DNA of 9,584 bases from a virus (IMGVR_UViG_2671180755_000015), one strand, 5' to 3'. Counted from the first letter of the stretch, positions 3,372 through 3,595 are shown. Notes: generated by a model not told the origin, from the sequence alone. Numbers and translations: made by a program.

Positions 3372-3595
3372 CCTGTTCACCTTTTGCAATTTTCCCTTTT
3401 TATTCATGATGTTAAGGGGTGAACAGTTTCACAAAAACTATTCACCAACTGTTCACCACTGTTCACCCTTAAAGCTCAATAAAGAATCAAAAAGGTGAAC
3501 AGTGAATAGTTTGGTGAACAGTTCATAAATAACTGTTCACCCTATAATATACTGATATAAAAGACATTTATTGCAGGGTGAACAGTGGTGAACAG
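3372..3595. repeat. Iteron array, putative origin of replication
   Basis: Nine perfect copies of the 8-mer TGTTCACC / GGTGAACA in both orientations (plus-orientation at 3374, 3450, 3460, 3534; inverted at 3418, 3494, 3513, 3577, 3587), plus two variants (TATTCACC at 3439, GTGAATAG at 3502). An AT-rich tract lies at 3541-3572. Located just downstream of the replication gene. Confidence 0.8.

Follow-up and report, generated by a model that had tools for sequence, protein, structure and literature searches.

Does the intergenic gap behind the replication gene of a small satellite element in Escherichia coli act as a replication origin, and which protein would serve it? The locus lies in IMGVR_UViG_2671180755_000015, a viral DNA of 9,584 nucleotides (the window, meaning the whole stretch that was analysed). 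A first-pass annotation had proposed an iteron-type origin there, immediately downstream of the gene for a replication protein (Rep). Our comparisons indicate that positions 3366-3594 are very probably the vegetative replication origin of a phage-inducible chromosomal island (PICI) of about 10 kb, of the EcCICFT073 type of E. coli, and that this origin belongs to the P4 alpha/type I iteron family. The reading rests on the homology of the Rep C-terminus to a known origin-binding domain, the P4-type iteron, a layout shared with PICIs and with Staphylococcus aureus pathogenicity islands (SaPIs), the joint switching of iteron and protein among relatives, and the replication of EcCICFT073. The same five points support the earlier proposal that the adjacent Rep serves the origin.

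Iteron cluster downstream of the rep gene

The window contained ten exact copies of the octamer TGTTCACC/GGTGAACA, nine of them within 3374-3594 (221 bp), whereas by chance 0.34 copies (sd 0.57) would occur in the whole window. In 200 dinucleotide-preserving shuffles the count never reached ten. The iteron consensus was longer than the octamer and read ACTGTTCACC. When variants were included, 12 sites (nine perfect and three variant) in both orientations were found in 3366-3594:

3366-3373, plus strand: variant CCTTCACC, left-module pair
3374-3381, plus strand: TGTTCACC, left-module pair
3418-3425, minus strand: TGTTCACC, left-module single, with the conserved flank CCnnTAAC
3439-3446, plus strand: variant TATTCACC, left-module triplet; this variant also occurs in P4 crr
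3450-3457, plus strand: TGTTCACC, left-module triplet
3460-3467, plus strand: TGTTCACC, left-module triplet
3494-3501, minus strand: TGTTCACC, right-module triplet
3501-3508, minus strand: variant TATTCACT, right-module triplet
3513-3520, minus strand: TGTTCACC, right-module triplet
3534-3541, plus strand: TGTTCACC, right-module single
3577-3584, minus strand: TGTTCACC, right-module pair
3587-3594, minus strand: TGTTCACC, right-module pair, 14-15 bp from the rep stop codon

These sites are arranged in two modules with the same internal order, namely a pair, about 43 bp, a single, about 21 bp and a triplet. The modules are mirror images of each other, with inverted-repeat arms at 3396-3448 and 3511-3563 that are 72% complementary. 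The modules and their AT-rich spacers are as follows:

3366-3467: left (rep-distal) module; pair on the plus strand (3366 variant, 3374), 36-bp AT-rich spacer, single on the minus strand (3418), triplet on the plus strand (3439 variant, 3450, 3460)
3382-3417: AT-rich spacer of the left module, mirror of that in the right one, 72% AT; second candidate unwinding site
3468-3493: central spacer, 77% AT; the axis of mirror symmetry lies at about 3480
3494-3594: right (rep-proximal) module; triplet on the minus strand (3494, 3501 variant, 3513), single on the plus strand (3534), 35-bp AT-rich spacer, pair on the minus strand (3577, 3587)
3542-3576: AT-rich spacer of the right module, 77% AT; candidate unwinding site, with the easiest melting in the cluster

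The least stable 25-mer of the cluster was located at 3543-3567, with -23.7 kcal/mol, where the average for the window is -33.3 (sd 3.3). The GC content of the gap between the neighbouring genes (3322-3608, 287 bp) was 25-43% over most of its length, and that of the flanks was about 45-65%. No DnaA box (at most one mismatch) was detected in 3322-3608 and no consensus for integration host factor (IHF) in the cluster, and the overall counts of both were at chance; this fits an initiator-driven origin. Neither a terminator-like signal on either strand nor a promoter-like signal on the minus (coding) strand was detected in 3000-3900, so transcription probably crosses the origin on its way from rep to the downstream genes.

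Most of the first-pass description of the cluster was borne out by these data. Its nine perfect copies in both orientations within about 220 bp are all present, and the cluster does begin directly after the gene with the superfamily 3 (SF3) helicase domain, 14-15 bp past the stop codon. Two details needed revision. The number of variants is three and not two; CCTTCACC starts six bases before the annotated interval. The AT-rich tract, although real, is found inside the cluster between the iterons 3534-3541 and 3577-3584 and not beside it.

An isolated perfect 10-mer ACTGTTCACC was also found inside the rep coding region at 4880-4889 on the minus strand (octamer 4880-4887), together with an inverted one-mismatch copy, AGTTCACC, 32 bp away at 4912-4919 on the plus strand. 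P4 is reported to have a second origin, ori2, inside its alpha gene, and the copy at 4880-4889 was considered as a similar intragenic site. This candidate was rejected, since a single stray copy is within chance expectation and most relatives scanned have no perfect iteron copy inside rep.

Comparison with the phage P4 ori and crr

The GenBank records of P4 (X51522 and NC_001609) annotate 16 "ori type 1 repeats", which are located in ori (9310-9413) and crr (4291-4590). Eleven of the 16 read TGTTCACC, and the rest are the one-base variants TATTCACC, TGTTCACA and TCTTCACC. The octamer of the window is thus the P4 type I iteron, letter for letter, and the motif was already known; the earlier expectation that it would newly define a binding motif does not stand. 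A full-text literature search for the octamer returned only unrelated primer sequences. A nucleotide search of a phage collection with the cluster found only the Klebsiella element vB_KppS-Ant; it did not recover P4, since the cluster shares only the short iterons with it.

The likeness to P4 ori goes beyond the octamer. The right module aligned column for column with P4 ori 9296-9428, and the iteron offsets from the single site were nearly the same in all three arrays:

P4 ori: -43, -33, -22, 0, +43, +53
Window, right half: -40, -33, -21, 0, +43, +53
Window, left half (mirrored): -42, -32, -21, 0, +44, +52

P4 ori therefore has in common with each half of the window cluster a six-site geometry made of a triplet, 21-22 bp, an inverted single, 43 bp of AT-rich DNA and a pair 10 bp apart, as well as a homologous initiator with a homologous origin-binding domain. 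The spacer of P4 ori that is homologous to 3542-3576 is also AT-rich. The comparison covers the type I repeats of P4. An extended flank on the single iteron, TGTTCACCCnnTAAC, was conserved in both halves of the window, in vB_KppS-Ant and in P4 ori, with the rep-proximal copy of the window ending in TAAT. This extension, followed by a conserved TG or ATGAAT, was found at 3400-3425 and 3534-3556 in the window, 9353-9375 in P4 (L001) and 11774-11800 in vB_KppS-Ant (L002). It may extend the binding site, be recognised by a second factor or mark the border of the melting region.

As judged from sequence, the putative origin of the window is thus made of two P4-ori-like modules placed head to head. 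They come straight after rep, with a second module adjacent and inverted in place of the two separate cis sites that P4 requires; its ori lies 2.3 kb upstream of alpha and acts together with the distant crr. The P4 site that corresponds in position, just downstream of the alpha gene, is in fact crr, which has the same iteron and the same TATTCACC variant. However, crr repeats a 120-bp unit with five sites twice in direct orientation, and half of its sites are variants; the window has two inverted six-site modules. The rep-then-origin layout described earlier is accordingly that of P4 ori in architecture and that of P4 crr in position, and the judgement that the locus is not novel in kind holds, since an iteron origin of the P4 type is here set in a rep-ori module of the PICI type.

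P4-like satellites are defined by a psu-delta-sid operon, epsilon/ash and a P2-type helper (PMC10085698). None of the P4-like satellite genes (the psu-delta-sid operon, epsilon/ash) was found in the window or in the annotation of the locus. The replicon is of the P4 type, but the element is not a P4-like satellite.

The replication protein

The gene next to the cluster encodes a homologue of P4 alpha that lacks its primase domain. The features of the gene that bear on the origin are:

3609-5441, minus strand: rep, initiator-helicase gene, 610 aa from the GTG at 5441 (RefSeq places the start at 5426, giving 605 aa; the stop codon is 3609-3611)
3648-3938, minus strand: C-terminal origin-binding (winged-helix) domain, aa 502-598
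3675-3719, minus strand: candidate specificity segment aa 575-589 (MKRKTKHGLRSNVTL), after the third helix; presumed wing
4932-5441, minus strand: Rep residues 1-170

The Pfam domains of Rep were D5_N (167-296), DUF5906, an SF3 ATPase (330-438), and Pox_D5 (501-596), an order common to Rep and P4 alpha, and the identity to P4 alpha was about 50% over aa 150-600, that is, the helicase and the C-terminus. In a phmmer search, aa 502-598 matched the P4 alpha origin-binding domain (PDB 1KA8) with E=4.2e-24 over residues 2-99 of the 100-residue chain. The helicase core matched SaPI5 PriRep5 (7OLA; E=2.5e-10).

P4 alpha combines a primase of the DnaG/Toprim type with an SF3 helicase and, at its C-terminus, a winged helix that binds the origin repeats, after which unwinding and priming follow (PMC2777425, PMC4234260). 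Our statements about binding by P4 alpha draw on secondary citations, the GenBank annotation and general background. The primary evidence reportedly stems from Ziegelin et al. in 1993 and 1995 and Yeo et al. in 2002.

The N-terminus of Rep is a clear difference from P4 alpha. P4 alpha carries an N-terminal Zn-ribbon and Toprim primase (PF08273 and PF13362), which Pfam did not detect in Rep, where about 165 residues stand in their place. These residues had no Pfam or NCBIfam match, and hhalign against the P4-type primase (Toprim) region gave a probability of 0.3%. AlphaFold2 was confident only for residues 21-130 of the N-terminus, which form a small beta-alpha-beta-alpha domain. Foldseek found nothing significant for this domain in the PDB (best E-value 0.3), with a DnaG primase at rank 2 as a hint only. 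RefSeq names Rep a "DNA primase family protein" despite the lack of a detectable primase domain. Among the relatives, the helicase and DNA-binding core was found with at least three N-termini, namely the P4-type primase (L012, 784 aa), the type of the window and a Serratia type (L013-L016). As Rep has no Zn-ribbon/Toprim region, its primers would come from the host DnaG, from a helper phage or from an unrecognised N-terminal activity.

Iterons and a short Rep segment switch together

The homologues number at least 5,429, and the comparative set comprised 72 related loci. In many of them an iteron cluster was located directly downstream of the alpha-type gene, but the octamer differed. The cores were distributed as follows:

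TGTTCACC: window, P4, vB_KppS-Ant, Kluyvera, Raoultella, Klebsiella, Citrobacter
TGTCTACC: E. ruysiae, K. georgiana, E. hormaechei, EcCICFT073
TGTCCGCC and TGTCCACC: Serratia
TGTGCACC: Proteus
TATACATC: Xenorhabdus, Photorhabdus
TCTCTACC: Symbiopectobacterium

An alignment of 12 origins showed that the layout was kept while most aligned iteron positions changed together. Iterons and protein switch together among the relatives, and in the close relatives the protein changes are concentrated in one short segment, which corresponds to aa 575-589. Outside this segment the C-terminal domain of close relatives was 73-85% identical to that of the window whatever the iteron type. Inside it, relatives that carry the iteron of the window reached an identity of 60-87% (80-87% if L013 is set aside), versus 25-35% together with a 5-aa insertion for close relatives with another iteron. 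Ten of the 17 columns that separate the classes among close relatives of the window Rep fell inside the segment. Its counterpart in L011 and L012 reads KRKQCTRGPDKGRTISNVLL. The structure model of the C-terminal domain was unusable (predicted local distance difference test, pLDDT, 38) and the full-length model was also poor there; with both models too poor, we infer the wing label from winged-helix topology only.

The core TGTCTACC went together with Reps that have two versions of the segment: that of EcCICFT073 (locus L079, NC_004431.1 1382241-1384283) is YITRKVKGVTQTNAI without insertion, and that of L007, L011 and L012 is KRKQCTRGPDKGRTISNVL with the 5-residue insertion. Either this specificity has two separate origins, or other parts of Rep also help to determine it.

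Conservation was also biased towards the iterons. Among eight relatives with TGTTCACC, 60 of the 96 iteron columns were invariant against 41 of the 139 spacer columns (Fisher p=6e-7). Two of the 12 sites entered this count two bases out of register, which should blur the contrast and not create it. Split clusters, about 2 kb from the gene, were seen in P4 and in an Erwinia element. A compact cluster only was present in the window, in vB_KppS-Ant and in several others, including long primase-bearing forms; for several relatives the single-cluster finding covers roughly 3 kb on each side of the gene.

Comparison with PICI, SaPI and plasmid origins

A homologous replicon has been tested by experiment in EcCICFT073. 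There, rep together with the ori beside it allows a temperature-sensitive plasmid to be maintained, and each of the two contributes (Fillol-Salom et al. 2018, PMC6092414). Like the window, EcCICFT073 has the order DUF4222, Rep, a 288-bp gap, a small open reading frame (ORF), a single-stranded-DNA-binding protein (SSB) and a capsid homologue. Its Rep was 49% identical to that of the window over 596 aligned positions, at full length and including the non-primase N-terminus. The gap shows the iteron layout of the window but is built from TGTCTACC instead of TGTTCACC, its Rep has another C-terminal specificity segment, and its distal arm is more degenerate.

PICIs and SaPIs have their origin directly 3' of rep, where iteron sets of opposite orientation surround AT-rich DNA (PMC6092414, PMC9371898), and the SaPI Rep is an initiator-helicase that loads itself and has a winged helix at its C-terminus (Qiao et al. 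2022, PMC9371898). A Gram-negative PICI of the EcCICFT073 type typically carries an integrase, an AlpA-like regulator and rep, followed by capsid or interference genes, all transcribed in one direction. The window likewise has its putative origin 3' of rep, with two opposed iteron sets flanking AT-rich DNA, in an element with int, a helix-turn-helix (HTH) regulator, rep and a capsid fusion, nearly all genes of which are on the minus strand. It fits the PICI/SaPI rep-ori design in every respect that can be tested by sequence. SaPI origins have 6-12 short iterons with an AT-rich middle and at least two opposed iterons per side. They differ from the window in their penta- or hexanucleotide iterons of unrelated sequence, their Gram-positive hosts and their separate or fused primase. 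In the paper on capsid-forming PICIs the origin is not described.

Iteron plasmids of the pPS10, R6K, RK2, F and P1 type also have repeated initiator sites beside AT-rich DNA and rep. However, their sites are direct repeats of 17-22 bp, and their Rep has two winged helices and no helicase activity and works with DnaA boxes and the host DnaB/DnaC. The window instead has 8-10-bp sites in both orientations, an SF3 helicase-initiator and no DnaA box.

Proposed mechanism and alternative explanations

We infer binding, the melting site, double-hexamer loading and the source of primers from these comparisons. The C-terminal winged-helix domain of Rep would recognise the octamer TGTTCACC, and after induction Rep would bind all twelve sites. 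One Rep hexamer would assemble on each mirror module, the two in opposite orientations, an idea borrowed from other SF3 origins such as that of simian virus 40 (SV40; PMC9894130). Rep would then melt the AT-rich spacers and load itself as the replicative helicase; 3542-3576 should open more readily than its mirror-image counterpart 3382-3417. Two helicases would leave in opposite directions, giving bidirectional theta replication, while the SSB of the satellite would coat the unwound strands and the host polymerase would carry out synthesis. The compact mirror arrangement probably provides in one place what P4 obtains from separate ori and crr sites.

A bolder joint proposal is offered tentatively, as one somewhat likelier to fail than to hold. 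It states that the two-site ori and crr of P4 have here collapsed into one palindromic origin that loads two hexamers head to head without looping, and also that a short cassette (here aa 575-589, the presumed wing, with or without the 5-residue insertion) fixes specificity throughout the alpha family by reading the central bases of a common iteron frame TGT-NN(N)-CC. If this is true, swapping the cassette and all twelve iterons would create new specificity classes, and several satellites could coexist without cross-activation. P4 and the PICI of the window would then fall into a single class, and each might activate the origin of the other.

Several points count against the main reading of the locus. 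In P4 the cluster directly downstream of alpha is crr and ori is about 4.7 kb away, so position alone is no proof of initiation. Deletion of the EcCICFT073 ori lowered plasmid maintenance without abolishing it (PMC6092414). The element interrupts a prophage gene and may be in decay, yet rep is intact and nearly all iterons are perfect. The segment aa 575-589 is presumed to be the wing from topology, with low confidence in both models. Finally, no primase was identified for Rep.

The position of crr in P4 makes a helper site of that kind the most serious rival: the cluster would be a crr-like cis-acting enhancer bound by Rep, and initiation would occur elsewhere in the element. The P4 crr unit even has a "single, 43 bp, pair" sub-module in common with the window. 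We nevertheless regard this explanation as improbable, because no second iteron cluster was found in the element, in the surrounding 33 kb or in the complete vB_KppS-Ant (16.5 kb, with a single cluster), each half of the window cluster matches the six positions of P4 ori and not the five-site crr unit, and rep with the homologous gap of EcCICFT073 was alone enough to support plasmid maintenance (PMC6092414). A somewhat less probable view is that the repeats are mainly operators, through which bound Rep or another protein controls read-through into the small-ORF, ssb and capsid genes, or controls copy number by handcuffing, with an origin role that is secondary or absent. Iteron arrays serve copy control in plasmids, and the cluster lies between co-directional genes, where bound Rep could block the transcription that probably passes through. 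Yet the sites are downstream of rep and not at its promoter, their geometry is that of P4 ori, and the homologous EcCICFT073 gap behaves as an origin (PMC6092414). A regulatory role could exist alongside origin function, not in place of it.

We give little credit to the idea that the cluster is a relic, the inactive origin of a decaying element in a defective prophage. The element does interrupt a prophage terminase gene, and the related O157 element Sp7 has a frameshifted alpha-like gene. Against decay, the rep gene of the window is full length, nine of the 12 sites are perfect, iteron columns are preferentially conserved, and the region occurs at a coverage of at least 80% in 667 of 5,426 complete E. 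coli genomes. The least probable explanation is that the functional unit is a long hairpin or cruciform formed by the inverted arms of roughly 105 nt, serving as a processing, termination or priming signal, with the octamers as mere building blocks. The minus-strand RNA folds at -101.5 kcal/mol (z=-11 against shuffles), and weak Rfam matches to generic miRNA-hairpin models mirror the same dyad. However, the consensus energy dropped to -34 kcal/mol across 12 relatives, and the consensus structure kept iteron-on-iteron pairs only (36 of 36 pairs in iteron columns), with the "compensatory" changes at the variable centre of the iteron and no conserved spacer pairing. Some copies of the octamer also stand in direct orientation, and P4 ori and crr contain it but lack this dyad. 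A structured RNA or cruciform was rejected on this basis, as Rfam at a permissive threshold returned only eukaryotic miRNA-hairpin models far below gathering scores and no covariation appeared outside the iterons.

Read as a P4-type satellite origin, the locus is mainly a matter of annotation and housekeeping and holds no surprise for a specialist in phage or satellite replication. It does link the biochemistry of P4 alpha, ori and crr with the PICI rep-ori literature, which are usually kept separate, through the same initiator domain, octamer and six-site module. The natural iteron switches provide a ready system for the winged-helix recognition code and for the incompatibility of co-resident satellites, and the primase-less alpha variant raises a tractable question about the priming of such origins. 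The compact mirror design as opposed to the split ori and crr of P4, the natural switches of iteron and wing, and the missing primase are worth following up.

Element and prophage context

The window was 100% identical to positions 3286259-3295841 of the chromosome of E. coli 2013C-3342, a Shiga toxin-producing strain (STEC) from human stool. The origin region was found in 668 of the 5,426 complete E. coli genomes (about 12%), and it was unannotated in every one of the listed E. coli genome matches; the 287-bp region can now be given the label of a P4-type satellite origin whose iteron is known. The element, about 10 kb, comprises int, an HTH regulator, Bro-N, an Icd-like gene, DUF4222, rep, the origin, a small ORF, ssb and a fusion of a ClpP protease with a capsid protein. 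It contains no portal or terminase gene and therefore resembles EcCICFT073-type PICIs and not full capsid-forming PICIs. The genes neighbouring the origin are all on the minus strand. Features outside rep and the origin are:

1-128 and 9393-9584: window edges, prophage terminase remnants
129-2018, minus strand: ClpP-like protease/major-capsid fusion, 629 aa
2669-3079, minus strand: ssb, encoding an SSB (Pfam SSB, 4.6e-15; TIGR00621)
3076-3321, minus strand: 81-aa ORF between the origin and ssb; a small ORF is also at this position in EcCICFT073 and ABU 83972
6042-7154, minus strand: 370-aa ORF
8154-9392: int

The SSB of the satellite is likely a replication accessory. In the 370-aa ORF only the last ~48 residues matched a family (Icd-like cell-division inhibitor). 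In this interval RefSeq has a 67-aa Icd-like coding sequence (6042-6245) together with two small genes on the plus strand, one of the YlcI/YnfO family and one for a hypothetical protein, and the long ORF is probably an over-call.

The satellite sits inside the large-terminase gene of a lambdoid prophage (L076, NZ_CP027766.1 3274259-3307841), with terminase remnants at 10091-11221 and 21562-22560 of that locus. RefSeq lists a terL fragment "missing C-terminus" just past int and a "terminase gpA endonuclease subunit, missing N-terminus" past the capsid gene, and the portal, capsid and tail genes of the prophage come next after the terminase fragment. The satellite thereby interrupts a gene that is essential for packaging in a potential helper, and its excision might restore the terminase gene. 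The capsid fusion of the satellite was 52% identical at full length to that of the host prophage (659 aa; L076 6411-8390, minus strand), which suggests capsid interference or remodelling, as with the EcCICFT073 capsid homologue c1499.

Two published elements may be of related kinds. The vB_KppS-Ant element (LR881103.1, 16.5 kb) was published as a filamentous single-stranded DNA prophage of K. pneumoniae DSM 30104 (PMC8006926). It carries an integrase, an alpha-like Rep, the TGTTCACC mirror origin, a terminase, a portal, a capsid and a head-tail connector, and looks like a capsid-forming PICI-type satellite; its published classification appears to be wrong. Prophage Sp7 of O157 Sakai has been described as a chimera of lambdoid and P4-like parts that has a P4-like int and Vis along with the frameshifted alpha-like gene, excises and accumulates circles (PMC2669165); Sp7 and the element of the window are probably of one kind.

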